A stretch of DNA of 46,981 nt from Candidatus Aenigmatarchaeota archaeon (GCA_026397335.1 JAPLVB010000011.1:1-46981), one strand, 5' to 3'; shown: positions 535 through 36,256, counted from the first letter of the stretch. Made by a program: numbers and translations. Notes: generated from the letters alone by a model not told the origin.

Positions 535-2256
535 ATGGCAAAAGTAAAGGAACCCCCAGAAGAACTGCAGAGGCAGAAAGAGGACATAGAAAACCTGCTC
601 TCCTCTCTTGAAGCAGGTTTTGCTGAAGGCAGCATAACTCAGGAGCATTACAAAGAGGTAAAGCAAAAAAACCTGGAGAAGCTGGAAGAGATAAAAAAGA
701 AACTGAAGCTGTCTGAAAAACAAGCCCAGAAAAAGGCCGAGAATGAAGCTCCTGAAAAAGCAGAAGCTCAGCCAAAGGAACCGCTGCCAAAGGAGGAAAA
801 GAAGGAAGAAAAGAAGGAAGAAAAGAAGGAAGAAAAGAAGCCCGGAATACTGGGGGAACTCTCCTCGAAAATATCCGGCGAGAGGGAATCAAACGAGGAA
901 AAAATAAAGGAAAAGATAATAATGGAGTTCTCGCCCAAGATAGAAAAAATCAACATCCGGCTTGTTAAGCTTAAGGCCTTTCTGGATGCAATGAAAGAGG
1001 ACAAAACGGGTGAGAGGGAGAATACCCAGCATATAAATGAAGAGCTTGGCGAGACGCGCTCTGCCCTGAGCAGCATAGAGGGCAGGCTCAGCGAGATGGA
1101 AATGAAGCTTGAGGATGCGACAGAGACGCTGGCAGACCTAAAGCCCCAGAGATTTGCAAAGGAGATTCAAAAGAAAGAAGAAGAGCTCAAGATGCACGAA
1201 GCAAGGCTGGAGAAACTGGATGACATGAACTCCACCATTCTCAAGAGGGTTAACCAGATACAAATCATTCTTGAGAAACTCGGGAACATAGAAAGCATAG
1301 CCACGATGACGAAAGACATCTCTAAAAAGCTCGTGTCAATAGACGACAAGGAGAAGAAGATAACAAGGCTTGCAGACAAGATAGATAACATGTTCGTGGA
1401 AATAAACAAGAGGCTTGAGGAATTCATGTTCTACAAAGCCAAGCAGGACTCCCTTGACGACCTTTCAAAGGAAATGCTCAAATCCATGGACGAACTGACA
1501 ACAAAACTCACAAGATACGCTGAGAAAGATGACCTGGAGATTCTCAGAGACACGTTGGAAAACAAGATTAATACAATCATGAAGGAGGGAGGAACTCCAA
1601 GCGTCTCCAAGCAGTTGCAGCAGGAAAAATCTGAGGTAGAATCGCTGATGAAACTGCTTGATGAGCAGTTCAAGAAAGGCCAGATGTCCAAGAAAGACTA
1701 TGAGAAAGCAAAAGAAGCCAATCTGCAAAAAATCAGGGAGATGGAAGCAACACCGCAAAAAGCAGCACTTCCAATCCCGGCAGAGAGCGAGGAAACCATA
1801 ATAGAGCAGGCGCCTGCGATTGAAGAAGAGATTCCAGAATCGCAATCCGGACTAGAGCAGGCAGCGAAAATTGCCCAGGCTCCAGAAATCCAGCCAACTC
1901 CGAAGAAAGAAGCGAAGGAGGAAAAACAGGCTCCTGCCAAACCAACACCCAGCAAGAAAGTCGCTTCCCGCGAGGAAGAGCCTAGCCAGAAGACAGTTAC
2001 AAAGGAAGAAATCGCGAAAAAAATAGGAAAAGCGAAAGAAGGCGGAAAGGAGACAGAAGTCGGCAAAGCCGACTTCCAACCAAAATCCGCCTTCATTTCA
2101 GAGTCTGAGAAGCCAATCCAGCTAAAGTCTGCGAAACCGCCTGACAAGAAACAGAAGATGCTTGCCGACCTTGAATATTCATTCAGAAAGGGTCTCATAA
2201 GCCAGAAGGCCTATGAAACTGCTCAGAAGATGATAATGGCAAAAAGTTTTGACTAA
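535..2256 (+). CDS. 573-aa coiled-coil protein with three SHOCT-like motifs and a KEEKK low-complexity run
   Basis: E/K/L-rich heptad-like sequence throughout. The pattern L..L...F..G.I[ST]...Y...K...L occurs three times, at about aa 18-50, 368-400 and 541-573. No TM segment or Walker motif. Confidence 0.6.
   Translation: MAKVKEPPEELQRQKEDIENLLSSLEAGFAEGSITQEHYKEVKQKNLEKLEEIKKKLKLSEKQAQKKAENEAPEKAEAQPKEPLPKEEKKEEKKEEKKEEKKPGILGELSSKISGERESNEEKIKEKIIMEFSPKIEKINIRLVKLKAFLDAMKEDKTGERENTQHINEELGETRSALSSIEGRLSEMEMKLEDATETLADLKPQRFAKEIQKKEEELKMHEARLEKLDDMNSTILKRVNQIQIILEKLGNIESIATMTKDISKKLVSIDDKEKKITRLADKIDNMFVEINKRLEEFMFYKAKQDSLDDLSKEMLKSMDELTTKLTRYAEKDDLEILRDTLENKINTIMKEGGTPSVSKQLQQEKSEVESLMKLLDEQFKKGQMSKKDYEKAKEANLQKIREMEATPQKAALPIPAESEETIIEQAPAIEEEIPESQSGLEQAAKIAQAPEIQPTPKKEAKEEKQAPAKPTPSKKVASREEEPSQKTVTKEEIAKKIGKAKEGGKETEVGKADFQPKSAFISESEKPIQLKSAKPPDKKQKMLADLEYSFRKGLISQKAYETAQKMIMAKSFD
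790..840 (+). repeat. 12-nt tandem repeat (gaaggaagaaaa, about 4 units) encoding (KEEK)n
   Basis: Perfect units at 801-812, 813-824 and 825-836, with a partial unit on each side. Lies inside the ORF 535-2256. Confidence 0.9.
2038..2094. repeat. 57-nt nested-hairpin element (copy A) inside a coding sequence
   Basis: Outer stem GAAGGCGGA (2038-2046) pairs with TCCGCCTTC (2086-2094). Inner hairpin is GAAGTCGGC-AAA-GCCGACTTC (2056-2076). It has the same architecture and length as 10189-10245. Confidence 0.8.
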
Positions 2257-12107: not shown

Positions 12108-13130
12108 TTAACCAGGCTGACCGTTACACTCAATCCTGTTTCCCTTAACCTTGAATTTCACATCCAGAAATCTCTCTATAACACTCATGTTCGTTTTTGC
12201 ATGCTGCGTAACTCGTGCCACACTCACCTCTGATTTGCCCTTGGCAAGGGCCAGATAAGGTAGAATCTGGTCAGCCATCCATTCATCCAGGCATGCTCCT
12301 GAATCCAGATTTCTCTTCAGGAGGGAGGCTGCCTCCTGGCCAACCTTCTCGGCACCCTTTCCTCGTTCCCCTATGGAACTTGCCCCAAGGAAGCAGTTTC
12401 CAAAGAATGAAACCAGTGTTATTGCCGAACCCGGAGAGAGGGAGGGAACGTATTTCACGGATTTCTTAACTTCACCGAGGACTTTCTCCGCAGCTTCCAT
12501 CTGCCTCTCCGCGACATGGTTTTTTACCAAATCCTTTGAGGCAGAGCTCCAGCCTTCCGTAAAAACATGCTTTCCCCTGGAAGTCAGGCTAACCGGTATG
12601 AGAAGCGATGAAGGCTTCACAATTACCATTATTTTCCCGCCACCCTTCGGGTAGAATCCATAAGAAAGGGTTTCGGATTCAACATTCGCGCCCATCTTGC
12701 CAATAAACTCACAGAAGACGTGACGAAAGTAGCCTGTTGTCGGGCTCCAGTTCACATGACTCCCGCCCGTTATCTCAAATATAAGCTCTTTCCCGGCAAC
12801 AACAGCCGGAATCATAAGGGTCTGCAGGACAAGCGTGACAGAGCCTGCTGTTCCCACATCTATCTGCAGCTTCTGCTCCGAAATTTCCTTGGGATAAAAT
12901 TCTATTTCCTGGGAGCCGATTTTCAGGCCTTTCACCTGCGCATTGCAGAGCTTTGCAGCCGCCTCTATCCCCTTGAGATGCTGGGCCTTGAGGCCGGGGA
13001 CAGGGCGACCTTTCCTTATGTTGAAGATTTTCACGGGTTTCCCAGTAACACAGGAAAGGCCTATGGCAGTCCTAACTATCTGGCCTCCGGCTTCCAAGTG
13101 ACCGCCATCTATTGTCAGAATTTCCGGCAT
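12108..13130 (-). CDS. rtcA: RNA 3'-terminal phosphate cyclase
   Basis: GGQIVRTAIGLS...IFNIRKGRPVPGLKAQHL signature, 340 aa. Confidence 0.9.
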   Translation of the reverse strand: MPEILTIDGGHLEAGGQIVRTAIGLSCVTGKPVKIFNIRKGRPVPGLKAQHLKGIEAAAKLCNAQVKGLKIGSQEIEFYPKEISEQKLQIDVGTAGSVTLVLQTLMIPAVVAGKELIFEITGGSHVNWSPTTGYFRHVFCEFIGKMGANVESETLSYGFYPKGGGKIMVIVKPSSLLIPVSLTSRGKHVFTEGWSSASKDLVKNHVAERQMEAAEKVLGEVKKSVKYVPSLSPGSAITLVSFFGNCFLGASSIGERGKGAEKVGQEAASLLKRNLDSGACLDEWMADQILPYLALAKGKSEVSVARVTQHAKTNMSVIERFLDVKFKVKGNRIECNGQPG

Positions 13131-13148: not shown

Positions 13149-14396
13149 TTATACTTTAATCTTGTCCCCGTTGGCAGGCGCATAAGCGTCAAATCCCATA
13201 TGCTTCAGCTCCTGGGCAAATTCAGGAGTCCTGTCACCATGCACGAGAACTATTTTTCCGGGGTTAGTCTTCTTGAAGAATTCTATAAGGTGGTCATGAT
13301 CGGTGTGAGCCGAGAAGTCTATCTGTTCGACTTTCATATTCGGTTTGATGTCTAACCCTTCGTTTATGTATCTTCCTGTATCCAAGAGTTTCCTTCCAAC
13401 TGTTCCCTCCACCTGAAATCCACTGATAACCATAGTACAGTTCTCGCGTTTGTGGAGTCTTTTTATGTAATATCCGATGGGGCCCCCGTTAAGCATCCCT
13501 GCGGTTGTTATCACGATGCATGGCTTGCTTAGTATGGCTTCCCTCTGCGAGGATTTTGCTATCTTGTGCGCCTTTCCAAAAGCCTTCTTAAGCCTTTCAA
13601 TATTCCTTACAGACTCGGGATAAGACATGATTACCTCAGTAGCGGTTATGCCCATTCCATCCAAGTAAATGGGAAATCCAAGGTCATGAAGGATAAGGAG
13701 CAGCTCCTGTGTTCTTCCCACGGCGAATGTCGGAAGGAGAAGTATCCCATTATTGTAAATTGTTTCCTGTGCAATTTCCCTCAACCTATCCTCTGCCGCT
13801 GTCCTCTCGGGATGATTTTTATGGGAGTAAGTGGCCTCGGTAATAAGCATGTCTATGTTCTGATAAGAAAGCGCGGCAGCCTTCATGAGCTGCGTGTCTA
13901 TAAAATTTATGTCACCCGTGAACATTACCCTCTTCTGGTTGGAATTTATTATGAAAGAAACGCTTCCCGGTACATGGCCTGATGAATGGACTTCTACAAC
14001 AGATGAGCCCACATGTTCTTTGCGGCCGAATTCAACAATCTTTTTCTTCCGCTCCATTTCCTTTATGTCATGGGCCATGTACATAGGCTCTATCCCGTTC
14101 CTATCCTGAATTTTCAGGGAATCCCTCAGAAGCAGGGAAGACAGGTCGAATGTGACTCCGGTTCCGTAAACATTCCCTCCATAGCCGCTTTTGTAAAGGC
14201 CCGGAACATATCCGGAATGGTCAAGCTGCGCATGGCTGAGAAGAATAGCATCCAAAGGAAGCTTGGGCTTTATGGGCATTTCAAAGCTCTGGACCTCAAT
14301 CCCGTGGTCAAGAATGAATTTTTCTGTTCCAGTTTCCAGAAGAACAGACAGCCTTCCAACCTCCCTTCCTCCTCCAAGTATTGTGATTTCAGGCAT
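13149..14396 (-). CDS. beta-CASP metallo-beta-lactamase-fold ribonuclease (aCPSF2-like, no KH domains)
   Basis: SHAQLDHSG (variant of HxHxDH), SGHVPGS, FTGD, ITEATY, FSAHTD and LVHGD motifs. The MPEITILGGG start at 14396 is preferred. Confidence 0.8.
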   Translation of the reverse strand: MPEITILGGGREVGRLSVLLETGTEKFILDHGIEVQSFEMPIKPKLPLDAILLSHAQLDHSGYVPGLYKSGYGGNVYGTGVTFDLSSLLLRDSLKIQDRNGIEPMYMAHDIKEMERKKKIVEFGRKEHVGSSVVEVHSSGHVPGSVSFIINSNQKRVMFTGDINFIDTQLMKAAALSYQNIDMLITEATYSHKNHPERTAAEDRLREIAQETIYNNGILLLPTFAVGRTQELLLILHDLGFPIYLDGMGITATEVIMSYPESVRNIERLKKAFGKAHKIAKSSQREAILSKPCIVITTAGMLNGGPIGYYIKRLHKRENCTMVISGFQVEGTVGRKLLDTGRYINEGLDIKPNMKVEQIDFSAHTDHDHLIEFFKKTNPGKIVLVHGDRTPEFAQELKHMGFDAYAPANGDKIKV

Positions 14397-14407
14397 ACAG
14401 AACAACT

Positions 14408-14419
14408 TTCTATAAATAT
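14408..14419 (+). promoter_or_regulatory. TATA-like box for the RuBisCO gene
   Basis: tttctataaata is centred about 25 nt upstream of the ATG at 14439, which implies a leaderless or short-leader transcript. Confidence 0.4.
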
Positions 14420-14438
14420 CCAAAAGTAATTTAATATT

Positions 14439-15401
14439 ATGTCTTACTTGGATTTAAGCTACAAGCCGAAAAGTGATTTAGTCTGCGAATTCTATCTGGA
14501 GCCGGCAAAAGGAATTTCTATAAAGGACGCTGCTGAGCATATTGCAGGAGAATCCTCAATAGGCACATGGACTGAAGTCTCCACATCAACCCCGCGAATC
14601 AGGAAAATGGCTGCAAAAGTCTTCTCAATAAAAGGCAATTACGTGAAGATAGCATACCCCCAGGAGCTTTTCGAGCCTGGAAACATGCCGCAGATAATGA
14701 GCAGTATAGCAGGGAACATATTCGGGATGAAGGCTATCGAGAATCTAAGGCTTGAAGACATAGATTTCCCGAAAGAGATTGCGAAATCGTTCAAAGGCCC
14801 TGAAATCGGGCTTGATGACCTGAGAAAAATCAGCGGAATAAAAGGACGGCCAATCCTGGGAACAATATACAAGCCCAAGCTGGGCATGAATCCGAAAGAG
14901 ATGGAAGACCTTGCGTATAAAGTCTATTCCTCAGGGCTTGACTACACAAAGGACGACGAGAACCTCTGCTCAATGAGTTTCAACAAATTCGAGGACAGGG
15001 TTTCAAGGATTCTTGGCGTTGCTGACAGAATCAAAAGCGAGCAGGGGAGGACAGTTATTTACGCGGCAAACATAACCGCTCCTGCGCATGAAATGCTCAA
15101 GCGTGCGCAGTTCGTTAAGGATCATGGCGGGAAATGCATAATGATTGACATAATGACAGCAGGCTGGAGCGGTCTTCAGTACATAAGGGAACAGAACCTC
15201 GGGATGATAATCCACGCACACAGGGCAATGCACGCAGCCATCACGAGGAATCCCAAGCATGGGATTTCCATGCTTTCAATCGCGAAGGCCGCAAGGCTTG
15301 TAGGAGTGACAGCCCTGCACACAGGCACTGTTGTCGGAAAGATGGAAGGCCCAAAAGATGAGGTTATAGAGATAGACAATTTCCGCAAGTCGGATTTCTA
15401 A
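14439..15401 (+). CDS. rbcL: RuBisCO large subunit, form III-like, N-terminal 320 codons (ends at tandem TAA TGA)
   Basis: GTWTEV, GNIFG, TKDDEN (carbamyl-Lys), HAHRAMHAA and GKMEG (loop 6) are all present. Confidence 0.85.
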   Translation: MSYLDLSYKPKSDLVCEFYLEPAKGISIKDAAEHIAGESSIGTWTEVSTSTPRIRKMAAKVFSIKGNYVKIAYPQELFEPGNMPQIMSSIAGNIFGMKAIENLRLEDIDFPKEIAKSFKGPEIGLDDLRKISGIKGRPILGTIYKPKLGMNPKEMEDLAYKVYSSGLDYTKDDENLCSMSFNKFEDRVSRILGVADRIKSEQGRTVIYAANITAPAHEMLKRAQFVKDHGGKCIMIDIMTAGWSGLQYIREQNLGMIIHAHRAMHAAITRNPKHGISMLSIAKAARLVGVTALHTGTVVGKMEGPKDEVIEIDNFRKSDF

Positions 15402-15416
15402 TGAATCAAAAAAATC

Positions 15417-15650
15417 ATGCCAAGCGCATCCGGTGGCTTTCATCCAGGACTTGTCCCGGACCTCCTGAAAATCCTCGGTAACGACTTGGTAATAACTTTC
15501 GGCGGCGGGCTATGGGGACATCCCGGAGGGCCTGAATCAGGCGTAAGAGCAATCAAGCAGGCAGTCGAATCTTCCATGCAGAAAATCCCTCTTGAGGAAT
15601 ACGCGAAAACACACAGGGAGCTGGCTCAAGCTCTCATGCAGTGGAAGTAG
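15417..15650 (+). CDS. rbcL: RuBisCO large subunit, C-terminal 77 codons, same reading frame as 14439-15401
   Basis: SASGGFHPG and FGGGLWGHPGG phosphate-binding motifs. It is separated from the upstream part only by TAA TGA ATC AAA AAA ATC. Confidence 0.8.
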   Translation: MPSASGGFHPGLVPDLLKILGNDLVITFGGGLWGHPGGPESGVRAIKQAVESSMQKIPLEEYAKTHRELAQALMQWK

Positions 15651-15653
15651 CTC

Positions 15654-16562
15654 TCACCCAAAAACCCTCTTTGCCTCCCTCTCGAAAATCTCCCAAGTCC
15701 TGAAATCCAGAGCCTTGGGATTTTTCTTCTTTATAAGAGAAACAGCTTCTTGGTCTATCTCCAACGCACTTTTTCCGGAAAGGTAGCCTATGTCAGGGCA
15801 GACAATCTTTCCTGGATTTGAGAGGCAGTCACAGAACTCTGTTATGTTCTTTAGCACAGTTATGAAAGCTATCCTGCCTCTGAAATGGTCAGTCACCTGT
15901 TTTGCAGCCAGGCAGAAAAGGCGGAAGCTGTCTTCCACAGCATCTGGCTTTAGACGCAGCGCTCCTGTTGGGCAGGCCTCTATGCACTGTCCGCACCCGC
16001 AGCAAATGTTTTCCCTGATTTTGAATCCTTCAGGACCTTTAACCCTGATTATGTGGCAGAAGCATGCTTTTTCACAGGCAAGGCATTCCTTGCATTTGGA
16101 TTTTTCATAAACAGGCATCATTGGCCTGTGAATCTGGTTTTTTGACTCCTTGTTTGCGCAGCCCATTCCCAGATTCTTTACAGCGCCTCCGTAAGCAGTT
16201 ATGCCATGGCCTTTTCCATGACTCAAGACAAGAAGGGAATCAGCCTCAAGAACAGCTTTTGCGATTTTGAATCCACCCTTTATCACATAATCCTCATCCC
16301 TTGCAATTACCACAGGAAAGTCTCCAAAACCGTTTTCTTTGGCCACTTTCATGTACCCTTCAGGCGTCTTTCTAGGCCCGGTATACAGGCATGTGGTGTC
16401 AACAAGGAATGGCTCGCACCCGGACTTCTTGAGCTTGTCAAAAACTATCCTCACATCCTCTGGGGAAACATGGGTCTTGTTTCCCCTCTCTCCCATGTGG
16501 ATTTTTATCACAACCCTTCCTTCAAGCTTTACCGGGATGTCAGAAATCCTTTGGTATAGCAT
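15654..16562 (-). CDS. DUF362-family protein with an inserted 2x[4Fe-4S] ferredoxin domain
   Basis: VIKIHMGE...VDTT...GHG...GCA DUF362 pattern plus CKECLACEKAC and CCGCGQCIEACP. The start is at MLYQRISD (16562). The longer track ORF runs antisense over porG. Confidence 0.7.
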   Translation of the reverse strand: MLYQRISDIPVKLEGRVVIKIHMGERGNKTHVSPEDVRIVFDKLKKSGCEPFLVDTTCLYTGPRKTPEGYMKVAKENGFGDFPVVIARDEDYVIKGGFKIAKAVLEADSLLVLSHGKGHGITAYGGAVKNLGMGCANKESKNQIHRPMMPVYEKSKCKECLACEKACFCHIIRVKGPEGFKIRENICCGCGQCIEACPTGALRLKPDAVEDSFRLFCLAAKQVTDHFRGRIAFITVLKNITEFCDCLSNPGKIVCPDIGYLSGKSALEIDQEAVSLIKKKNPKALDFRTWEIFEREAKRVFG

Positions 16563-16606
16563 AAACCTCACAATATAAGATGGCTCATGCAAATAAATAT
16601 TAGTTT

Positions 16607-16661
16607 GAAGGCGAATGCCTTCTTTCGAACAGTTAGACTGAAGGTGTCTCTTGACACCTTC
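16607..16661. repeat. two tandem GAAGG/CCTTC hairpins (copy D) in a divergent intergenic region
   Basis: GAAGGC-GAAT-GCCTTC (16607-16622) and GAAGGTGTC-TCTT-GACACCTTC (16640-16661). The second is an exact 22-nt copy of 9200-9221. Confidence 0.85.
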
Positions 16662-16682
16662 TATCGGAAATCGGGTGGTATT

Positions 16683-17273
16683 TTGGAACTGTACGAAGTC
16701 AGGATACATGGCCGCGGAGGGGAAGGAGTGCGCATGGCGGCTCACATTCTCGGGAGAGCGGGCTTCCTTTCGGGACTGAAGACACAGGACTTCGCGATAT
16801 ACGGTTCGGAAAGGAGGGGAGCACCTATAGCTTCTTTCTGCAGGCTCTCGAGCGAGAGCATACTCACGCGCGGGTATATATTCAATCCTGATTCTGTAAT
16901 TGTGCTTGATCACACTCTGGATAATGAGACATGCCTGAAAGGATTGAAAGAAGGGGGAAAGATTATAGTCAATTCCGAGAAACCAATTTCCAAATTTCCA
17001 AATGCAATTTTTGTGGACGCGACAAAGGTGGCGCTTGACACAATAGGGAGACCAATACCAAATGTTGCGGTGCTTGGTGCTTTTCTCAAGGTTACAGGAA
17101 TACTTTCGCTTGAAAAACTCAAGCAGGCTGTGAGGGAGGAGATGGCAGGAAGCCACCCTGAAGCGATAGAAGGGAACATCAAGGCATGCGAGCTCTGTTA
17201 CAACATGGTTAACCAAGATTCTTACGCTACGTCCGAAGGACGTATTCTATCTGTTAAACAAGTTTCAAGGTGA
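16683..17273 (+). CDS. porG: 2-oxoacid:ferredoxin oxidoreductase gamma subunit
   Basis: (M)ELYEVRIHGRGGEGVRMAAHILG...YGSERRGAP motif. A TTG start at 16683 is inferred, because upstream ORF sequence covers the hairpin repeats. No alpha, beta or delta subunit is adjacent. Confidence 0.7.
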   Translation: MELYEVRIHGRGGEGVRMAAHILGRAGFLSGLKTQDFAIYGSERRGAPIASFCRLSSESILTRGYIFNPDSVIVLDHTLDNETCLKGLKEGGKIIVNSEKPISKFPNAIFVDATKVALDTIGRPIPNVAVLGAFLKVTGILSLEKLKQAVREEMAGSHPEAIEGNIKACELCYNMVNQDSYATSEGRILSVKQVSR

Positions 17274-21275: not shown

Positions 21276-22376
21276 TCAAACCAGTTCCTTCTTTGGTTTC
21301 TTGGGAGGTGTGGGCTTCCTGACAGCAGGTTTGGAATCCTCTTTCAGGGTCTTTACAGTTTCTGTGAGGAGCTTTAGGGATTCCATCATGGGCGTCATGC
21401 CGTCGCGCAGCGCCTTTTCCACAGTTTCCATCCGGCTGTGCATGCCCGTCACAGACTCACTGTACATGCGTATCTTATCATCAAGCCTTTCTAGGCTGGG
21501 ATTTTTTACAGTCTGCATTTTCGCCACTTTATCTTCTATGGAAGCCAGCTTTTCAGTTATGCCAGCCACATTCATGTTCATGGAATTCACGGAATCCTTG
21601 AACCCCTTCATGTTCCCTGAAATCAGATCATCCACATCCATGTCATCATCAAGGTCATCCATATCAGGAGCTTTTCTTGTAGACCTCCTGAAAATACTTG
21701 TTGGTGAAGCAATGGGGGCTCCAGGCTCGTAAATAAAAGTTTCCGGGAGACTCCTTTCAAACCTTTCGGGAGCCGGAGCTGGAGGAATGGATTGCTGGGG
21801 TGCAGGAGATTTTGGCTGGAAGGCTGGAAAATCAAATCCATTAGCTCGTTTGGGAGGATCTAGCTTAGGGGGATCAGGAGGACTGTAGTTCTCCATGAAC
21901 CTCTTTGCTGTCTCCATCTTTTCGTAAAGAGACTCTTCCTTTTGCAACTCATTTTCCATTTTCCTGATTGCAAGGTTGATTTTTTCAAGGATAGAATCGA
22001 AGGTCTTTTCGTGCTTGGCTATCATGGTGTTTACCTGGGAAACCACGTCAGCTTTCAGTTTTTTTATTTCTTCATCATTTTCTTCAAGTTTTTCAGGCAT
22101 GCTTTTAGCGAATTCCGAGATTTCTGTTATCCTCTTATCCATCAGCCTGAGCACCTCTTCGCTTCTTTCGCTGGATTTTCTCGCCTCTGTTTCAATCTTC
22201 TGAATCCTTCCATTAAAGTTTTTTATTAAGTTATCCATCTGCTTTAGCTGCTTGGAGTTGGAATCCACAAGCTCCTTTACCTGCTGGGCGATTTCCCTGT
22301 ATCTGCCTTTCCAAAGCTCTTCCTTCCCCTTAAGACTCACAATCCGCTTCTCGATTTTTTTGTAAACTTCAGGCAT
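21276..22376 (-). CDS. 366-aa protein: coiled coil, Pro-rich/acidic linker, second helical domain
   Basis: The N-terminal 170 aa are heptad-like. The linker reads PPDPPKLDPPK...DMDDLDDDMDVDDL. The C-terminus is helical with repeated M/S/K. GGAAGGT..GGGTG lies upstream of the ATG. Confidence 0.6.
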   Translation of the reverse strand: MPEVYKKIEKRIVSLKGKEELWKGRYREIAQQVKELVDSNSKQLKQMDNLIKNFNGRIQKIETEARKSSERSEEVLRLMDKRITEISEFAKSMPEKLEENDEEIKKLKADVVSQVNTMIAKHEKTFDSILEKINLAIRKMENELQKEESLYEKMETAKRFMENYSPPDPPKLDPPKRANGFDFPAFQPKSPAPQQSIPPAPAPERFERSLPETFIYEPGAPIASPTSIFRRSTRKAPDMDDLDDDMDVDDLISGNMKGFKDSVNSMNMNVAGITEKLASIEDKVAKMQTVKNPSLERLDDKIRMYSESVTGMHSRMETVEKALRDGMTPMMESLKLLTETVKTLKEDSKPAVRKPTPPKKPKKELV

Positions 22377-22395
22377 GTTTGCACCCGAACCTTCC

Positions 22396-22474
22396 GATTG
22401 AAGTCGGCTCTAGCCGACTTCCTTCCAAGTGTTCGTTTGAAGGTGGCATGTAGCCACCTTCCTTCCAACAGTTC
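22396..22474. repeat. two tandem 39/40-nt hairpin units (copies E and F) in the intercistronic spacer
   Basis: GATT-GAAGTCGGC-TCTA-GCCGACTTC-CTTCCAAGTGTTC followed by GTTT-GAAGGTGGC-ATGTA-GCCACCTTC-CTTCCAACAGTTC. The stems differ by compensatory TC/GA versus GT/AC. Confidence 0.85.
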
Positions 22475-24983
22475 AATCCTCTTCTTTGAGAAGCTCGTAA
22501 AGCTTTATCTGCTCCTCCTGCCATTCCTTTATGTCTTTCTTGAGGTCTGCTATTTCCTCCCGCAGTTTTGAAATCTCCGCCTTGTCGGACTGCTGTTCTT
22601 CAAGCAGCTTTCTCATCATCTCCTCTTTATCCTCAGAGAGCCTCTTCTCGAGCCTTTTATCCTCAACGTTTACGTTCTCTATCATCTTCACAACCCTTGT
22701 TAACGCAGATTCCATACCCTTCACATATTCCTGCTGGCTGGAAACCCTTTTCTCAATCTCAGTCCTGAATTCCGCATTTTTAGCCTGCTCCTTTATAAGA
22801 TTCTGAAAATCAATATGGTGCTTTTCGACTTTTGAGCCGATGGCGGAGTCAATAGCCTGCAGCTGTTTCATCCGGGTTTCCGCCCCGGAGATCCTTTTAT
22901 CAGCAGAAACTTTCGAGGAGCTGAGCGCATTAAGCTGCTTGTTAAGGGCGGATGTTACCAAAGAAGATGTCCTGAGGCTGCTTTCCATGGACTTTACTTT
23001 CTCCAATAAGGCCTTTCTCTCTGAATAAATCTGGGATTCCATTCTTCCTAACTTAACATTTAAATCCTTGGAGAAGGAGCCCGATTTCTCAAGGCCTGTT
23101 GCGAGGGAATCAATCCTTTTCAGGGCATCTGATACTTCCTCCTCGTTTTTCTCTATTTTCTCTGAAGCAGAATACTCGTGTTTCTTAATCCTGCTGTCAA
23201 GGGACTTGGTGAACTCGTTCAGCCTGGCTATTGCCTGGACGGTGTTTCTTATATTCTCTGAAAACTTTGCCCTCTGCTCTGCCAGGTTCTTCTTCTCTGC
23301 AGATACATCCCCGGAAAGCCCGGAAATCCTTTGCCATGATTTTTCAGAAAGGCCGGTTATCTTGGATGAGAGGGCTTTCTGCTCCTCCCTTATTCCCCTC
23401 TCCAAGACAATCTTCATTTCAGCAACAGCCTTTTTCTCGGAAGCCACGTGCGAGCTGACATGCGAGATTCTGTTTTCAATATGATCATAAGATTCTGAAA
23501 GTTTTGAATCAAAATTCTCCTGCGATTCCTTGATTCTCTCATTTATCAGGGATTCTACATCCGCTATATCCCGCCTCTCGCCAGCAAGACTTTCATTAAT
23601 CTTGGCTATCCTGCCTGCAAACTCCTCATAAACCGCTTTGAGCCTGGCCTCGAGAAGTTCAGCATGCCTTTTCTGGTTCAAATCAGCATGCGCTTTCAGC
23701 TGCCCTGCCTTTGAGCTTATGCTCTCCTCAGCGCTTTTCCTGATTTCAGAAATCTTTCTGTCAAATTCAGCAATCGCCTTAAGCCTTCTTTCAATAAGCT
23801 CAACCTGCTTCTGGTCGCTTATCTCAATGTGCGATTTGAGCTGTCCCACTTTATAATCTATTGCCTCTGCTGCATGCTTCCTGACACCAGCAATCTCCTT
23901 CTCAAGCCTGCTTTCACGCAGGGAAACGGTTTTTTGGGATTCAGCTATCTTCCTGCTTATCAGGGATTCTATACTTCCCATTTCCTTTCTTTCGCTGGCA
24001 AGCCTCTCATTTATCTTGGCTACCCTGGCCGCAAAATCCTCATAAACAGCTTTCATCCGCGTTTCGAACAGTTCAGCCTGCCTTTTCTGGTTCAAATCAA
24101 AATGCGCTTTCAGCTGCCCTGTCTTTGAGCTTATGCTCTCATCAGCACTCTTCCTCAGCTCAGCCAGCCTCTTCTCAAGCTTCTCATCCTCAAGATTTAT
24201 GCTGTCCAGCCTCTTTGCGATTTTGGATACAGCGGAATCCAGCTCCTTTATTGAGGCCTGGTGGCCTGAGACTCTCTTCTCGATTTCAGCCCTGGAGAAT
24301 CCTGCATTCTCAAGCTGCTTCTTGAGAGAAACGGTGTTAACCTTGAGCTGCCTGACAAAAAGCGAGGTCCGGGAAAGATTCCTCTTCAGCTCCTCATGTG
24401 ATGCAGCCAGCACATTTACCGAGTCTGTCGCGTCTTGGAGAACCTCCTCTGAGGCTTCTGATATCTTCAGGGAAAGCCTGTCCTGTGCTGTTTTCAGCTG
24501 TGTTTCAAAATGACCTTTTGTCTCAGTCAGCCTGGATTCCAGCGCTTCGTCCTCTTTGGCTTCCTTCTCCCTCAACCTCTCTATATGGCTTTTTGAGAGG
24601 CTGGTCAGTTCACTGAGCTTTTTTATAACCTTCTCAGCCTCGAGAAGCCGGTTCTTAAGCGACTCATCTCCTGAGCGGATTTTTGAGAGATAGGAAGTAT
24701 GGATTTTGAGCTCCTGCTCAATGGCGGATATCTTCCTGGTTTCGGCCTTCAGCTCCGCGATCTGGTTTTTTATGGGAGCTGTCTCCTTGTCCACAAAATC
24801 CAGGATGCGCTTTCCGGCTTCCTCATAAATGACATAGGCTTCCCCGAGCTTCTGGCCAAGGAACCTTGTCCTCTCGATTAGAAATGCGCGATCCTTCTGC
24901 AGTTGTTCTATCAATCGCTTCTGGCTGTCAGAATTCTTCTTGAGCTTTTCTATCCCGGTGCTCAGCTCATCAATCTCTTTCAT
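22473..24983 (-). CDS. 836-aa giant coiled-coil protein with internal repeats
   Basis: Uninterrupted E/K/L/S-rich heptad sequence with a 138-aa-period internal duplication. No TM, signal peptide or NTPase motif. Confidence 0.65.
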   Translation of the reverse strand: MKEIDELSTGIEKLKKNSDSQKRLIEQLQKDRAFLIERTRFLGQKLGEAYVIYEEAGKRILDFVDKETAPIKNQIAELKAETRKISAIEQELKIHTSYLSKIRSGDESLKNRLLEAEKVIKKLSELTSLSKSHIERLREKEAKEDEALESRLTETKGHFETQLKTAQDRLSLKISEASEEVLQDATDSVNVLAASHEELKRNLSRTSLFVRQLKVNTVSLKKQLENAGFSRAEIEKRVSGHQASIKELDSAVSKIAKRLDSINLEDEKLEKRLAELRKSADESISSKTGQLKAHFDLNQKRQAELFETRMKAVYEDFAARVAKINERLASERKEMGSIESLISRKIAESQKTVSLRESRLEKEIAGVRKHAAEAIDYKVGQLKSHIEISDQKQVELIERRLKAIAEFDRKISEIRKSAEESISSKAGQLKAHADLNQKRHAELLEARLKAVYEEFAGRIAKINESLAGERRDIADVESLINERIKESQENFDSKLSESYDHIENRISHVSSHVASEKKAVAEMKIVLERGIREEQKALSSKITGLSEKSWQRISGLSGDVSAEKKNLAEQRAKFSENIRNTVQAIARLNEFTKSLDSRIKKHEYSASEKIEKNEEEVSDALKRIDSLATGLEKSGSFSKDLNVKLGRMESQIYSERKALLEKVKSMESSLRTSSLVTSALNKQLNALSSSKVSADKRISGAETRMKQLQAIDSAIGSKVEKHHIDFQNLIKEQAKNAEFRTEIEKRVSSQQEYVKGMESALTRVVKMIENVNVEDKRLEKRLSEDKEEMMRKLLEEQQSDKAEISKLREEIADLKKDIKEWQEEQIKLYELLKEED

Positions 24984-26818
24984 GACTTCAGCTCCCTAAG
25001 AAGCTCGCTTACCTTCACCCTCTCCCTCTTTATCCTCTCTTCCACATGCTTCCTCTCGGTAACAGTCTGGTTCAGGACGGATTCAAGCCGGGCCTTGTCA
25101 GCCGCGTTTTGAGCTTCAAGCATGGACTGCCTCTCATTAATGGCAGCAATATCACTCTCCATTTTTTTCACCATAACGGCAAGATTCTCCTTATCCGCAA
25201 GTTTCTTGCCAACGGCTTTCATGGAAATCTCCGTTTCTGTAAGCTTGTCTCTCAGGGGTCTTATGTCAGAAATAATCTTCTGGACGGCTTCGAGATTGTC
25301 TGAAAGCTTGTCAAACCTCGATTCCGCATCCCTCAGGTTCTGCTCAAGGACTATGGTGCGCTCCCTCTCCGCGGCCATCTTGGCATCCAGGCTCTTGGTT
25401 GCAGCAGCCAGATTCTCAGACCTCTTGGCAAACACGTCTTTGAGGTCAATCACCTTGTTTATTGTGGAAAACTGGTCGCTCATCTTCCTTGAAATATCGT
25501 TTATGGATGACTCGAATGTTTTCTGCCTTTCCTTCAGGCTGGCAATCGTATCCGTGTTTTTGCCTGAGTCCTTTTTGACAGCCTGCACATCATAATAAAC
25601 CTTTCTTTCTATATCCCTGGTCCTGTCCGCAATCCATTTCCTCAGGTTCTCGGGAGCCTCCATGTCCTCTATCATTCCAAGAATCTCCCTGTCCTTCTCA
25701 ACCAAAGCCCTTGCCTTCTCATCATTAAGCATAAGGCGCTTCTCTATCTCCTGCATCCTGTTCTCAAACAGCTCATTAACAACATCCTTTACGCTGGTCT
25801 CTATCATCCTCGGAGAGGCGAACTCCTGCATTTTTGCAAGCTGGTTCTGGTACTTCTCCATCATCTTGTCCATGCGCTTGTGAATGTTCATCTTGATGAT
25901 TGCAAGCCCCCCAAGGAACTTCGCCTCCTCTTCCGCAAACTTCTTGTAAAGCTTGTCCTTCTCGAGCCTGAGCTCGTTTATCGTTTCCCGGAATTTCTTG
26001 AGCTCCCTCACTTCCCCGTCCATGAGCGAGATTCTCTTTTCAAGCTCGTTTGTTGATTCCCTGTTGGCCTTCAGGCTGTTAATTATGGGATCTATCCTCT
26101 TCCTCATCTTCCTGCTAACTGTCTCCGGAATCAGTTCCTCCATAAGCTCGTCTGCGGAGAAAACTATCTTCTTGAGCTTCTGTATGTTTTCAGCACCCAG
26201 CTTGTCATTTATTTCCCTGAACTGTAACTCAAGCGCTTTCAGCTTCTCCAGCTCCTTGAGCTTGTCCTCTGCAGAAGTAAGCCTGTATTCGACTTTCTTG
26301 CTCATGTTGCTGAGCGCCATATTAATGGAATCAATAGTTTTGCGAACGTCATTAAGCTCGCTCTCAAAATCAACCTGCTCCCCAAAAGAAGCCAGCCCCT
26401 GGGAAACCGCTCCAGGCTGTTTTGGCTGGTATAGGGGGCTGCTCAATCTCTCGTTAATCTGGGCTATCTTATCACCCAAATCCTTTATCCTTTCAAGCTC
26501 CTTGAGCTTGTCAGATATCTCCCCAAGCTTGGGGTCAAACTTTTCCTTCATCAGGATGGCTACCTGTTTCTTGACCTCGTCTTTGTCCTTACCCGAAGAT
26601 ACTGACTCCTCAAGCTTTCTTATTTTTGCATCGAATTTTTCCCCCATATCCTTCAGGGCACTCTCTACCCCTGAATCAGGCTTCTGGTCAGATAGGCTCT
26701 CTATTATTTCAGCCAAGCCCTTGCTCTTGTCAGCAAGTTCTGCCTTCTCTTTCTCCAACTGCACGATTTTTTTCCTGCTTTCTTCAAGTTCCTTGTCAAC
26801 TAGCTGGCCTTCAGCCAT
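24980..26818 (-). CDS. 612-aa giant coiled-coil protein
   Basis: Heptad-like sequence throughout. Has a 4-nt ATGA overlap with the downstream gene. Confidence 0.65.
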   Translation of the reverse strand: MAEGQLVDKELEESRKKIVQLEKEKAELADKSKGLAEIIESLSDQKPDSGVESALKDMGEKFDAKIRKLEESVSSGKDKDEVKKQVAILMKEKFDPKLGEISDKLKELERIKDLGDKIAQINERLSSPLYQPKQPGAVSQGLASFGEQVDFESELNDVRKTIDSINMALSNMSKKVEYRLTSAEDKLKELEKLKALELQFREINDKLGAENIQKLKKIVFSADELMEELIPETVSRKMRKRIDPIINSLKANRESTNELEKRISLMDGEVRELKKFRETINELRLEKDKLYKKFAEEEAKFLGGLAIIKMNIHKRMDKMMEKYQNQLAKMQEFASPRMIETSVKDVVNELFENRMQEIEKRLMLNDEKARALVEKDREILGMIEDMEAPENLRKWIADRTRDIERKVYYDVQAVKKDSGKNTDTIASLKERQKTFESSINDISRKMSDQFSTINKVIDLKDVFAKRSENLAAATKSLDAKMAAERERTIVLEQNLRDAESRFDKLSDNLEAVQKIISDIRPLRDKLTETEISMKAVGKKLADKENLAVMVKKMESDIAAINERQSMLEAQNAADKARLESVLNQTVTERKHVEERIKRERVKVSELLRELKS

Positions 26819-31070: not shown

Positions 31071-33161
31071 GTGCAAAGGAATGGATTATCTCTGCAAAGC
31101 GAGGACAAGTTCAGGGCAATCTTTGAGGGAACGAATGATGGGATACTTGTAGCTGATGGCAAAACAAGGAAATTCATTCTCGCGAATTCCAGGATATGCG
31201 AAATAACAGGCTACTCCCAGGAGGAACTGCTCAAATTAAACGTGAACAGCATACATCCCAAAAAAGACTTGCCTCACGTAATCAGCGAGTTCACGAAACT
31301 GCTGCAGAAAAAAATAATCACTGCAAAAGGCATACCCGTGCTGAGAAAAGGCAAAGGAGTGGTTTACTGCGATATCAATTCCAAGATTGTAAAAATCGGC
31401 GGCCGGGAATGCCTAGTGGGATTTTTCAGGGACATAACCGAGCGCAAACAGATGGAGGATGAGTTACGAAAAAGCGAGCAAAAGCACAGGTTCCTAATGG
31501 ACAACATAGACGAAATCGTTCTTATAATCAGCAAAACAGGCAATATCGTCTTTGCCAATAACAAGGCACTGAAAACCTTCGGATATTCCAGCGAGGAGAT
31601 AATAGGCAAGTCCATCGTGAGTTTCCTGACTAAAAGATCAATCAAGAAGGCAATGTACGCGCTTGCACAGGAGTTCATGGGGAAGCACCAGGCCGAAATG
31701 GATGTTGAAGCCAGGACAAAATCAGGGGAAATCCGGACACTGGGCGTTGCACCGTCATCGATTCCGGTTTACGAGAAGGGCAAAATGGTAGGCATACAGG
31801 TGAACTGCAGCGACATAACCGAGCGCATGAAGGCGGAGGAAGCGCTCAGGGAAAGGGAGGAAATGTACAGGCTGCAGTTCGAAGAGGCAATTGACGCCAT
31901 TTTCATAGCAGATGCAAAGACGGGGATACTGGTAAACTGCAACCGGGCGGCAACAAGGCTGGTCGAGAGGGACAAATCAGAGATTATAGGCCAGCACCAG
32001 AGCATACTTCACCCCCCGGAAAAAACCAGGGGAGAATTCACCAACACCTTCAAAAAGCACATGAAAGAAGCCGAAGGCCAGACCCTGGAAGCCAAGGTCA
32101 TAACCAAAAGCGGCAAACTGAAGGACGTTGCAATAAAGGCCAACTTCATCGAACTGGGCGGGAAAAAATACCTTCACGGCATATTCAGCGACATCACTGA
32201 GCGCATGAAGGCGGATGAGGCTGTAAAGCAGAGCGAGCAGAAGCTTTCCCAGATAATACAGGGAAGCTCTGTTGCAACCTTCGTGATAGACAAGAACCAT
32301 AAAGTTATTTACTGGAACAGCGCATGCAAAAACCTGACAGGAATCCCGGCAGAAAGGATGATAGGGAAGGACGTCCAATGGTCGGCATTTTACAAGGAGA
32401 AGAGGTCGCTGCTGGCAGACCTGATAGTTGATGGCGCAAAGGAAAGCGAGATAAATAAGCTTTATGAAGGCACGTCCAGGAAATCCCAAGTCCTTCAAGG
32501 GGCATACGAGGCAGAGAGATTCTTACCGAAGCTTGGCAAAAGCGGCAGATGGCTTTTGTTCACTGCAGCACCCCTGAAAAACAGCAAAGGCCAGATAACA
32601 GGGGCAATCGAAACACTCCAGGACATAACAGAGAGGAAGGGCGTGGAAGAGGAGCTTAAAGAAAGCGAGGAACGGCACAGGATACTGTATGAATCCTCCT
32701 GGGATGCGATCATGACGCTTGCACCTCCGAGCTGGCTTTTCACTTCAGGAAACCCGGCTACAGTAAAGCTGTTCGGCGCAAGGAGCGAGAAGGAATTCAT
32801 CACCAAGGGGCTCTGGGACGTTTCGCCGGAATGTCAGCCTGACGGGATTCCCTCTTCAGACAAATCCAAGAAGATGATTGAGAAGGCCATGAAAGAGGAC
32901 TCCAACTTCTTCGAATGGACCCACAAGAAGCTAAGCGGCGAAGACTTTCCCGCGACAGTCCTGCTCACCAGAATGAAGATTAAGGACCAGACATTCCTGC
33001 AGGCGACCGTAAGAGACATAACAGAGCAGAAGAAAGCCGAGGAGGAGCTCAAGTCAAAAGTCGAAGAGCTGGAGAGGTTCAACAAGCTTGCAGTGGGAAG
33101 GGAGCTCAAGATGATTGAACTGAAGAAGAGGATTGGGGAGCTGGAAAAGGCAGGAAAATAA
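31071..33161 (+). CDS. 696-aa cytoplasmic sensor with five PAS domains and no enzymatic output domain
   Basis: Five units each end in DITE[RQ]K-x-[AMV]E[ED]-L. The C-terminus is KVEELERFNKLAVGRELKMIELKKRIGELE. GTG start. Confidence 0.8.
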   Translation: MQRNGLSLQSEDKFRAIFEGTNDGILVADGKTRKFILANSRICEITGYSQEELLKLNVNSIHPKKDLPHVISEFTKLLQKKIITAKGIPVLRKGKGVVYCDINSKIVKIGGRECLVGFFRDITERKQMEDELRKSEQKHRFLMDNIDEIVLIISKTGNIVFANNKALKTFGYSSEEIIGKSIVSFLTKRSIKKAMYALAQEFMGKHQAEMDVEARTKSGEIRTLGVAPSSIPVYEKGKMVGIQVNCSDITERMKAEEALREREEMYRLQFEEAIDAIFIADAKTGILVNCNRAATRLVERDKSEIIGQHQSILHPPEKTRGEFTNTFKKHMKEAEGQTLEAKVITKSGKLKDVAIKANFIELGGKKYLHGIFSDITERMKADEAVKQSEQKLSQIIQGSSVATFVIDKNHKVIYWNSACKNLTGIPAERMIGKDVQWSAFYKEKRSLLADLIVDGAKESEINKLYEGTSRKSQVLQGAYEAERFLPKLGKSGRWLLFTAAPLKNSKGQITGAIETLQDITERKGVEEELKESEERHRILYESSWDAIMTLAPPSWLFTSGNPATVKLFGARSEKEFITKGLWDVSPECQPDGIPSSDKSKKMIEKAMKEDSNFFEWTHKKLSGEDFPATVLLTRMKIKDQTFLQATVRDITEQKKAEEELKSKVEELERFNKLAVGRELKMIELKKRIGELEKAGK

Positions 33162-33173
33162 AGGAGGGATGGC

Positions 33174-34181
33174 ATGTTAAAATGCAGGATTGGTTTCATG
33201 CAGAAAATGCTGCTCGCAACTTTATTGATTGCGGTTCTGTTCCTGAGCGGTTGCACAACGCAAACAGGGAAGGTTTACCATGTGGGCATCCTGTCTGGCC
33301 TGGACGCTTTGTCCGGCATAGCCGATAGCTTTAAGGCCAAAATGACAGAGTTAGGCTATATAGAGGGTAAAAATATTGTTTATGATATACAGAAGACAAA
33401 CTTTGAGCCTGATAAAGAGCAGCAAATTCTCAAGAAATTTGTAGACGATAAGGTTGACTTGATTTTCACGTTCCCCACTGAGCCGGCTGTAGCAGCCAAG
33501 GCGGCTACCCAGGGAACAGGAATTCCTGTGGTTTTTTCCTTCGCTACAATAGAAGATAATAATCTTGTAGATAGTGTGCGCCAGCCTGGCGGGAACATAA
33601 CTGGCGTGCGGGAGCCTGGTCCAGACATTTTTGTCAAGCGCTTGGAGATTTTACATGAGTTGGCGCCTCAGGCCAAACGAGTTTATATAACTTATAACCC
33701 AAATGCCCCTCCTGTCCCGCCAGCGCTTGATGTATTGCGTAAGGCAGCTCCTCTAATGAATGTAACATTAGTGGAGAATCCTGTTGCAACCGTGGAAGAG
33801 ATTGAGACTGATTTGCAGGCGCGAAACAAATCAGCTGATATTGGCATGGACGCCATACTAATGATGGGTGAACCTCTTTCTGTCTCGCCTCCTGCTCTTG
33901 AAGCAATGACTAAGTTTGCAACCGAACACAAGATACCCATTGGAGGAGTTGGAAGTTACACAATCAGAGGGAGTATTGTTTTTAGTTATGAGATTGTGCT
34001 TGATGATATGGGTAAGCTGGCTGCCCCTCTCACCGACAAAATCCTCAAAGGCACACCGGCCGGCACCATCCCAGTCGTCACACCCGAGGCAAAGTTGCTG
34101 ATCAATTACAAACTGGCTAAAGAGCTGAATCTGACAGTGAGCGAAGGCCTGCTGGCCCGTGCGGATGAAATAATTCGTTAG
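33174..34181 (+). CDS. lipoprotein, ABC-type substrate-binding protein of the COG2984/ABC_sub_bind family (paralog 1)
   Basis: Lipobox-like LSGC. KVYHVGILSG..., KVDLIFTFPTEPA, GIPVVFS, PGGNITGV, and GTPAGTIPVV...LNLTVSEGLLARADEIIR. Confidence 0.8.
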   Translation: MLKCRIGFMQKMLLATLLIAVLFLSGCTTQTGKVYHVGILSGLDALSGIADSFKAKMTELGYIEGKNIVYDIQKTNFEPDKEQQILKKFVDDKVDLIFTFPTEPAVAAKAATQGTGIPVVFSFATIEDNNLVDSVRQPGGNITGVREPGPDIFVKRLEILHELAPQAKRVYITYNPNAPPVPPALDVLRKAAPLMNVTLVENPVATVEEIETDLQARNKSADIGMDAILMMGEPLSVSPPALEAMTKFATEHKIPIGGVGSYTIRGSIVFSYEIVLDDMGKLAAPLTDKILKGTPAGTIPVVTPEAKLLINYKLAKELNLTVSEGLLARADEIIR

Positions 34182-34194
34182 AGAGGTGATAAGA

Positions 34195-35208
34195 ATGGTT
34201 AGAGATAAAAGAATGGGATTTGGATTGCAGGCAGTTCTTGCATCCTTGCTGGTTGCAGTCATTTTTCTTGGAGGCTGCACCACCACACAGAATGAGAAGG
34301 TTTATCATGTCGGGGTCCTGTCCGGCCTGAGTTTTGTTGCCGACATAACGGACGGCTTAAAGGCCAAGATGACCGAGCTAGGCTACACAGAGGGAAAGAA
34401 CATAGTCTATGACGTGCAGGAAACGAACGTTGACCCGGCCGCGTACCGGCAAGTCCTCAATAAATTCGTAGCCAATAAGGTGGACTTGATTCTCGCGTTT
34501 CCCACTGAGGTCGCTCTAGAGGCTAAAGCAGCCACCCAAGGGATAGGCATCCCCGTGGTTTTTGCCAATGCCGTTATAGAAAATACAGGCCTGGTCAATA
34601 GCGTGCGCGAGCCGGGAGGGAACATCACGGGCGTGCGCTTCTCAACCTCGGACCTTGCGTTACGGCGTTTTGAAATCTTGCACGAGCTAGCGCCGCATGC
34701 CAAGCAGATGTGGATACCATATCAGCGGGGTTATCCCATCGTAGCCAGCCAGTTAGGGGCATTGCAACCAGTAGCGGCATCAGCGGGAGTAACAATGATA
34801 GAGGTCCCAGCCGACAATGCAACAGAACTTGAGACTAATTTGCAGACGCGCGTGAAATCGTCTGATATTAGCTCCGATGCCATATTATGTATAGTTGAAC
34901 CTCTTATGACGATGCCCGATACCCTTGCGGTCCTCGGTAAGTTTGCAGCTGAACACAAATTGCCGATTGGTGGTTGTCCAATATCGAATAATAGTAGCGG
35001 ATCGATTTTTATGACGGCGCCTGACAATGTTGACGTCGGCAAGCTCGCTGCATCCATAGCCGACAAAATCCTCAAAGGCACCCCGGCCGGCACAATCCCG
35101 GTTGTCACACCCGAGTCAAGACTACGAATAAATTATAAAGTGATTCAAGAACTGGGACTGAACGTCAGCGAGGGCCTGCTGAACAGGGCAGATGAGATAA
35201 TCCGTTAG
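34195..35208 (+). CDS. lipoprotein SBP, COG2984 family (paralog 2)
   Basis: Same motifs, lipobox LGGC. I prefer the ATG at 34195, which has GAGGTGAT upstream as in paralog 3. The track starts at the GTG at 34186. Confidence 0.8.
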   Translation: MVRDKRMGFGLQAVLASLLVAVIFLGGCTTTQNEKVYHVGVLSGLSFVADITDGLKAKMTELGYTEGKNIVYDVQETNVDPAAYRQVLNKFVANKVDLILAFPTEVALEAKAATQGIGIPVVFANAVIENTGLVNSVREPGGNITGVRFSTSDLALRRFEILHELAPHAKQMWIPYQRGYPIVASQLGALQPVAASAGVTMIEVPADNATELETNLQTRVKSSDISSDAILCIVEPLMTMPDTLAVLGKFAAEHKLPIGGCPISNNSSGSIFMTAPDNVDVGKLAASIADKILKGTPAGTIPVVTPESRLRINYKVIQELGLNVSEGLLNRADEIIR

Positions 35209-35222
35209 AGAGGTGATAGGAA

Positions 35223-36236: not shown

Positions 36237-36256
36237 CCTCATGAAATCAGGATAAA

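Follow-up and report, generated by a model that had tools for sequence, protein, structure and literature searches.

Tandem in-frame stop codons in a Form III RuBisCO gene of an Aenigmatarchaeota-like archaeon: a probable recent inactivation or consensus error

Fragment complementation is known for (beta/alpha)8 enzymes other than RuBisCO, namely for yeast PRAI cut into (beta/alpha)1-6 and (beta/alpha)7-8 pieces, for the halves of HisF and for fragments of TIM, and adjacent split protein genes are known from Nanoarchaeum equitans. RuBisCO of Form III-b has been described in Aenigmarchaeota and Pacearchaeota, which belong to DPANN (Castelle 2015; Jaffe 2018; PMC6389311). Pseudogenes of rbcL occur in non-photosynthetic plants (PMC554776), and broken genes occur in DPANN assemblies (bioRxiv 10.64898/2026.05.13.725050). 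Here we analyze a gene assigned to Form III RuBisCO in Candidatus Aenigmatarchaeota archaeon (GCA_026397335.1, JAPLVB010000011.1:1-46981; this whole stretch of 46,981 nucleotides is called the window), located at 14439-15650 and interrupted by two consecutive in-frame stop codons, TAA TGA. Most probably the gene has been inactivated recently or its consensus is in error, a working two-piece enzyme being the less likely reading. Of the first two we lean towards inactivation, which would make the locus a recent loss-of-function allele, specific to one lineage, of an otherwise ordinary RuBisCO gene of Form III (III-b) from an Aenigmatarchaeota-like DPANN archaeon. Four things were observed directly: the lesion, its absence from the relatives, the cluster of changes around it and the intactness of the rest of the gene. 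The finding is an ordinary one.

Layout and family membership of the interrupted gene

According to the direct sequence and the list of open reading frames (ORFs), the reading frame opens on the plus strand with ATG 14439 and runs for 320 codons to TAA 15399-15401. TGA 15402-15404 follows directly, then ATC AAA AAA ATC and then ATG 15417, which opens a second ORF (15417-15650) of 77 aa with the terminator TAG 15648-15650, in the same frame as the ORF 14439-15401. The original prediction had described precisely this, two ORFs in one frame with TAA TGA between them and a restart ATG four codons past the stops, and both descriptions are borne out by the sequence. The parts of the gene and its surroundings are as follows.

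14410..14438, plus strand: AT-rich region (ctataaatat ... tttaatatt) just before the RuBisCO ATG, likely a TATA-type promoter for a leaderless or short-leader mRNA (upstream sequences)
14439..15398, plus strand: RuBisCO codons 1-320, N-terminal domain and (beta/alpha)1-6 of the catalytic barrel (ORF list, Pfam, TIGR03326)
15385-15449, plus strand: patch with 10 window-private substitutions (private-site counts, best-relative tiling)
15399..15404, plus strand: tandem in-frame stops TAA TGA, codons 321-322 (sequence, codon alignments)
15405..15416, plus strand: spacer ATC AAA AAA ATC, codons 323-326, end of the alpha6-beta7 loop; A-rich, 12 nt, without Shine-Dalgarno sequence
15417..15650, plus strand: RuBisCO codons 327-403 and TAG, beta7-alpha7-beta8-alpha8 and C-terminal helices (ORF list, Pfam, TIGR03326)

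When joined, the two pieces make up 403 codons, a length identical to that of the eight closest intact orthologues (P0001-P0008), with which the gene shares 84-90% protein identity. The stitched sequence aligns with the type III RuBisCO of Pyrococcus horikoshii (2cwx), the nearest solved structure, with no gaps across the junction (E 2.6e-128). The equal length and the gapless alignment indicate that the stops stand in place of two codons, Tyr321 and Gly322 of the orthologues; the colinear spacing and the replacement of codons without a deletion, which the original prediction had proposed, are therefore confirmed. Relative to the intact orthologues the reading frame is disrupted, as expected for a pseudogene. 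One close orthologue, P0009 (416 aa), has a 13-residue insertion, SDGRRQETPSVQM, between two strands of the N-domain, around residue 65.

In Pfam searches, the N-terminal piece matched PF02788 RuBisCO_large_N (2.9e-44, positions 2-119 of 120) and positions 4-189 of the 299-position model PF00016 RuBisCO_large (1.5e-55), and the C-terminal piece matched positions 223-299 of PF00016 (3.6e-21). The domain order of Form III, RuBisCO_large_N followed by the RuBisCO_large barrel, is present but distributed over two ORFs. Against TIGR03326 rubisco_III (NCBIfam), with a curated equivalog cut-off of 497.45 bits, the pieces score 427.8 (N-terminal) and 90.9 bits (C-terminal), and the intact orthologue P0001 scores 547.7 bits; neither piece alone attains the cut-off, so that no single polypeptide does. 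The N-terminal piece holds K171 (the carbamylated Lys), D173/E174, H261/R262, H294 and the loop-6 residue K301, and the C-terminal piece holds the phosphate-binding S331-G332-G333 and G355-G357. The columns that are invariant with the window included (alignment A1) are K145, K147, K171-D172-D173-E174, H259, H261, R262, H265, H294, K301, S331-G332-G333 and G355-G357. By its sequence, domain order and catalytic residues the gene is a Form III (III-b) RuBisCO. Such an enzyme would work together with AMP phosphorylase and ribose-1,5-bisphosphate isomerase; no homologues of deoA or e2b2 were found with Pfam among the 20 larger window ORFs scanned.

A rescue at the level of RNA or decoding had been put forward in the original prediction, and we regard it as hardly credible. 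The stops would be read through, bypassed, edited or spliced out, giving one protein of 401-403 aa, and only the colinearity and the intact downstream frame speak for it. However, all three stop codons terminate genes in the window (TAA in 20 genes, TGA in 16 and TAG in 14), no other gene has an in-frame stop, and two different consecutive stops would need two suppression events. The 111 nt round the stops fold no better than shuffled sequences (z = -0.25), and Rfam gave no family match at the stop region. Since there is no extra sequence in comparison with the orthologues, splicing out an intron or bypassing a gap would leave the protein too short. An archaeal bulge-helix-bulge intron and translational bypass were discarded given the exact colinearity and the lack of structure, and an alternative genetic code was discarded given the stop usage. 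Tandem in-frame stops also end three ordinary genes, at 12108-13130 (minus strand), 40503-40883 (plus) and 46001-46333 (minus), and as such are not unusual in the window.

The stop site in relatives and the patch around it

Junction DNA was available from 12 distinct relatives (L001, L002, L007=L012, L009, L010, L011, L013, L014, L032, L033, L034 and L038=L039), which have 79-86% nucleotide identity over the window's RuBisCO gene. At codons 321-322 all 12 have TAC or TAT (Tyr), followed by GGA, GGG or GGC (Gly), AGG (Arg) or GAC, and the stop-restart arrangement is present in none of them; all protein homologues are full length through the site. TAA TGA needs two substitutions, which lie side by side at 15401 and 15402. 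The mark of an artefact had been named in advance, sense codons in sibling genomes, and these are indeed found at this level of relatedness. The sole near-identical relative, L015 (backbone 97-100% identical, protein 97% identical over codons 1-274), is on a contig that stops at window position 15259, 140 nt short of TAA TGA.

We found no record of the exact sequence of either piece in the assembly index, and an exhaustive representative protein search with the 77-aa piece returned only matches of 62% identity or less. A search through the DUF362 neighbour did not recover a genome with the window's backbone, and gave L038/L039, in which RuBisCO is intact. Some short matches to the 77-aa piece start with Met (P0010, P0041 and P0055), but they look like 5'-truncated genes cut to the first start codon and are uninformative.

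Other damaged copies were seen among the contigs. L011 (Ga0153915_10504216), from the same RuBisCO clade, has a different in-frame stop at codon 185 (GAG to TAG, reading FNKF*DRV), and in L029 (Ga0124853_1191152) the RuBisCO is apparently frameshifted early. Broken copies of the RuBisCO gene thus recur in metagenome contigs.

The stops do not stand alone, since they lie within the 65-nt patch, where the identity to the best relative is 80-83%. Eight of its 10 private changes are non-synonymous (L316R, Y321*, G322*, M/L323I, V326I, I329S, L334F and R337G). In codons 316-337 the window has 10 private changes, against 0-3 in each of eight relatives and about 1.3 predicted from the window's density elsewhere, and its total over the full-length sequences (41 private nucleotide changes, or 32 after adding two relatives) is about like that of any relative. 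A mutation cluster, in which synonymous and non-synonymous rates would both be raised, gets a divided answer: within the patch the private synonymous changes are not raised, yet the synonymous difference from the best local relative is high. A diversity-generating retroelement was considered as the source and rejected, since the altered bases are not adenine-specific.

The original prediction had stressed that the catalytic residues on both sides of the stops are conserved. This is correct, as they are invariant, but the residues adjacent to the stops are not conserved. In a set of about 110 homologues, with identities as low as 55%, Leu nearly always occupies position 316, the residue preceding ASGG is Ile, Val, Ala or Thr, and the residue following SGG is Leu, Met or Val; the R316, S329 and F334 of the window occur in none of them. 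When placed on the AlphaFold2 model of P0001 (predicted local distance difference test score, pLDDT, 93.8), L316R affects the last residue of alpha6, I329S the middle of beta7 and L334F the residue after SGG. Judging from these alignments, the three replacements look like damage and not like maintenance.

The rest of the gene is in contrast with the patch. Private synonymous to non-synonymous changes are 12:3 in codons 1-315 (relatives pooled, 132:61) and 1:0 in codons 338-372, where there is no non-synonymous difference from any close relative. In the C-terminal tail they are 1:5 (relatives pooled, 16:20), and all lineages vary in this tail. The gene has neither indels nor further stops. The NG86 omega is 0.04-0.05 for the window in codons 1-315, similar to other pairs, and 0.05 between the window and L015 in codons 1-274. 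The earlier statement that there is no long-term decay therefore stands, and the comparison of non-synonymous and synonymous rates (dN/dS), with which relaxed selection in both fragments was to reveal a plain pseudogene, suggests that both pieces are constrained outside codons 316-337. Given the mosaic ancestry described below, this constraint may predate the stops.

These data bear on an old pseudogene in slow decay, which we consider very improbable. The disrupted ORF and the radical replacements near the stops are consistent with it. On the other side are the absence of indels, a private non-synonymous to synonymous ratio that outside codons 316-337 is as in intact relatives, the low omega of codons 1-315 and the unchanged core at codons 338-372; it was set aside, the gene being otherwise intact and constrained. 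The gene-wide relaxation, indels or extra lesions expected of a pseudogene were not found, which is compatible only with a recent inactivation.

We suggest that in such a recent loss-of-function allele two adjacent base changes would have turned TAY-GGA (Tyr321-Gly322) into TAA-TGA. Translation from the native start would terminate at codon 320, and the truncated product would be devoid of beta7-alpha7-beta8-alpha8 and hence of the Ser-Gly-Gly and Gly-Gly-Gly phosphate-binding loops. Lacking these loops, it would be inactive as a carboxylase. Since the rest of the gene is untouched, free of indels and of other stops and with synonymous and non-synonymous changes in a normal ratio, the inactivation would be recent.

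Structure at the break and expression of the second piece

In the model of P0001, a helix at 306-316 (alpha6) is followed by a loop at 317-326 and a strand at 327-331 (beta7), then by a helix at 336-346, a strand at 351-354 (beta8) and a helix at 365-380. According to this model, the stops would be in the interior of the alpha6-beta7 surface loop, a permissive site for a break, and ATG 15417 would encode the first residue of beta7, so that on the predicted structure the cut is a clean 6+2 division of the barrel. The original prediction had considered a split enzyme, with the pieces assembled in trans. In this case, translation would terminate at TAA/TGA and re-initiate at ATG 15417, and the 320-aa and 77-aa pieces would assemble non-covalently into an active barrel. 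We consider this improbable; that the local burst of substitutions represents relaxed or re-tuned new chain ends, as the same reading would have it, seems just as doubtful.

Several observations are nevertheless in its favor. Besides the position of the break and of the restart Met in the model, all catalytic residues are intact across both pieces, there are no indels or further stops, and codons 338-372 have zero non-synonymous against about 15 synonymous differences from L032, with the excess of replacements only at the new termini. In the spacer, each of the three base changes has cost a G, and the resulting leader is A-rich and unstructured. The summed TIGR03326 scores of the pieces (427.8 + 90.9) would exceed the family cut-off. 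The geometry has a probability of about 6% by chance: when all single-step nonsense mutations were enumerated in four intact orthologues, 5-7% placed the stop inside a loop, with an in-frame ATG no more than six codons away. The break geometry is thus suggestive, but not rare. ATG 15417 is also not a new start, since it corresponds to the ancestral Met327, present in nearly all close orthologues.

The expression signals do not help this possibility. Upstream of the window's first cistrons there is a TATA-like box at a distance of 20-30 nt but no Shine-Dalgarno sequence, and the internal cistrons have GGAGG or GGTGA 5-10 nt upstream. When the upstream sequences were compared with those of the window genes, we were not able to find GGAGG/GGTGA near ATG 15417 or a TATA box at -20 to -30; both kinds of signal are in use elsewhere in this genome. 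Having no initiation signal of its own, the C-terminal piece could be expressed only by termination-reinitiation over the 12-nt A-rich spacer, and it would compete with an out-of-frame ATG (15401-15403) inside TAATGA that opens a 26-codon ORF. In addition, the arrangement is absent from the 12 relatives with DNA at the site, I329S in mid-beta7 and L334F by the SGG loop are unprecedented states at buried, near-universal positions, the mosaic ancestry means that the conservation of the C-terminal piece may predate the stops, and no natural split RuBisCO was found in the literature searched. If the pieces did form an active enzyme, no earlier RuBisCO large subunit made of two chains in nature would be known, and 6+2 barrel complementation would have a natural example.

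From the four explanations originally offered, the recent pseudogene and the artefact fit the data best; correction at the RNA level is unsupported, and the support for a split enzyme is circumstantial.

Mosaic ancestry, neighbourhood and comparison with known systems

When the window was tiled against all relatives, a different one was nearest every 100-300 nt. Between 11449 and 17600, blocks of 97-100% identity to L015, L038/L039, L032 or L009 lie beside blocks of 68-85%, such as 13194-13450 inside the beta-CASP gene and 14650-14800 inside RuBisCO, and in the comparison with L015 long stretches of 97-100% identity are broken by blocks of 68-90%. L015 is the nearest relative up to about 15000, and L039 has 97-99% identity at 15150-15250. 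The best relative has only 80-83% at 15350-15450 and 80-89% at 15500-15850, after which L039 has 93-97% at 15900-16150 and L032 100% near 16300. The patch is at the 5' edge of a stretch of about 500 nt without any sampled close relative. Such a mosaic comes either from homologous recombination, pervasive among related populations of Aenigmatarchaeota, or from strain-chimeric assembly.

Due to this ancestry the stop event is undatable, and with either origin of the mosaic the low omega of the window-L015 pair is a mark of functional sequence that was imported, not of the time since the stops. An attempt to date the stops by dN/dS against L015 was dropped, since the differences sit in recombination blocks on a backbone that is 97-100% identical. 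Other diverged blocks are mostly synonymous, with pN/pS of 0.10 in the beta-CASP gene and 0.24 in an acyltransferase gene, and the RuBisCO patch is unlike them in having stops and radical replacements.

Metagenome Ga0315294 is the source of both L015 and L032, contigs that break off within the RuBisCO gene and share a 210-nt overlap of 99% identity; downstream of the gene, L032 has 80-84% identity with the window, with patches of higher identity in 100-nt tiles, and it is L015 that has the window's backbone. Evidently the assembly graph branches inside the conserved RuBisCO gene. It is possible, although we take it to be rather unlikely, that in a source community of several closely related strains the consensus of 15385-15449 mixes haplotypes or carries polishing errors (e.g., per-site majority calls over mixed strains) and that the stops and some of the odd residues are present in no real genome. 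The switching of the nearest relative is equally expected from a strain-chimeric assembly, and the two contigs of one metagenome that end in this gene suggest that assemblers struggle here. Contigs of the clade with an in-frame stop (L011) or frameshifts (L029) also point in this direction, and so does the lesion being a dense local cluster in an otherwise perfect gene. On the other hand, the A7 run and its surroundings are free of indels, the typical error of long reads; De Bruijn assemblers cannot switch haplotype within 2-3 nt, and the TAATGA k-mers would need to be in the reads. Nine or ten of the patch bases are absent from every sampled allele, so that mixing known alleles is insufficient, and the rest of the 47-kb window has no broken genes.

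If the stops are instead a real loss-of-function allele, the patch most likely arrived in one step. It could have come in with a short tract recombined from an allele that was diverged and possibly decayed already, or it could be the result of clustered mutation. The switching of the nearest relative every 100-300 nt makes imported tracts a routine source of local divergence here. Taken together, the uniqueness of the lesion, its damaging neighbours, the lack of initiation signals, the routine presence of diverged tracts and the broken allele of L011 tip us towards loss of function, with moderate confidence.

Some points weigh against this preference. The break is unusually well placed for a working split, with a pre-existing in-frame ATG 12 nt past the second stop, and the excess of non-synonymous change only near the break, together with the perfectly conserved core of the C-terminal piece, would match a functional split with relaxed termini. 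Import of a tract needs an unusual, already damaged donor, because the other tracts are mostly synonymous. We found no donor, neither as an ectopic template within the window nor in the species-representative genomes, where a degenerate DNA pattern for MPSASGGFHP gave three chance matches only. On the assembled consensus, a consensus error and a real allele are inseparable.

In either of these two cases, loss of function or artefact, the practical meaning is one of caution in annotation. The gene should be flagged as disrupted, and the genome should not be credited with a working RuBisCO of nucleotide salvage (the adenosine monophosphate, AMP, pathway) without checks at the level of reads. On a modest scale, the locus also illustrates that a damaged tract can end up in an otherwise pristine gene through recombination or through the mixing of strains in DPANN populations.

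The nearest genomes are metagenome-assembled genomes of Aenigmatarchaeota or unclassified DPANN. According to Pfam, intact archaeal genes surround the locus (deoxyhypusine synthase, diphthamide synthesis, HMG-CoA reductase, RtcA and the beta-CASP RNase), and the order RtcA, beta-CASP RNase, RuBisCO, DUF362 and POR-gamma is kept in relatives. The coding density of the window is about 89%, and its remaining genes, about 50, are unbroken. The immediate neighbours are the following.

13149..14423, minus strand: beta-CASP/metallo-beta-lactamase RNase gene, intact, divergent from RuBisCO (Pfam; synteny in L033, L038 and L039)
15654..16559 (start approximate), minus strand: DUF362/4Fe-4S protein gene, intact, convergent with RuBisCO (Pfam; synteny)

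Homologues of the DUF362/4Fe-4S protein have 299-304 aa, the best being 87% identical. The mechanical ORF of 520 aa at 15654-17216 (minus strand) is an artefact of a long upstream extension, and only its C-terminal part of about 301 codons is the DUF362/4Fe-4S gene; the plus-strand ORF 16587-17273 that overlaps it is the real gene for the POR gamma subunit. Elsewhere in the window, four large ORFs (366, 836, 612 and 573 aa) at 21276-26818 (minus strand) and 535-2256 (plus strand) are Pfam-negative at E below 1e-5. A sensory cluster at 31071-39381 (plus strand) encodes a multi-PAS protein of 696 aa, a dCache-HAMP protein of 426 aa, a 608-aa ORF and three tandem paralogous ABC-type substrate-binding proteins (335, 340 and 337 aa; PF04392), and this signalling locus is unusually rich for a DPANN-type genome.

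In comparison with the Form III (III-b) RuBisCO of DPANN, the locus has the same domain order, 403-codon length, catalytic residues and gene neighbourhood; the DPANN enzymes differ in having an uncut frame, a single chain above the family cut-off and the three near-universal residues by the cut retained. The fragment-complementing (beta/alpha)8 barrels are likewise cut between modules 6 and 7 in a surface loop, with the downstream piece starting from beta7, a likeness in geometry only. Those barrels and the splits of N. equitans were either made in the laboratory or are natural splits that are conserved and carry expression signals of their own, whereas here there is no initiation signal and the split is not conserved. 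From nonsense-inactivated accessory genes and rbcL pseudogenes, the former of which it otherwise matches in each respect tested, the locus differs in that there is as yet no gene-wide relaxed selection and the damage is confined to the 65-nt patch. With them it shares a premature stop where the relatives are intact, accompanied by a second broken allele, L011, in the same clade.

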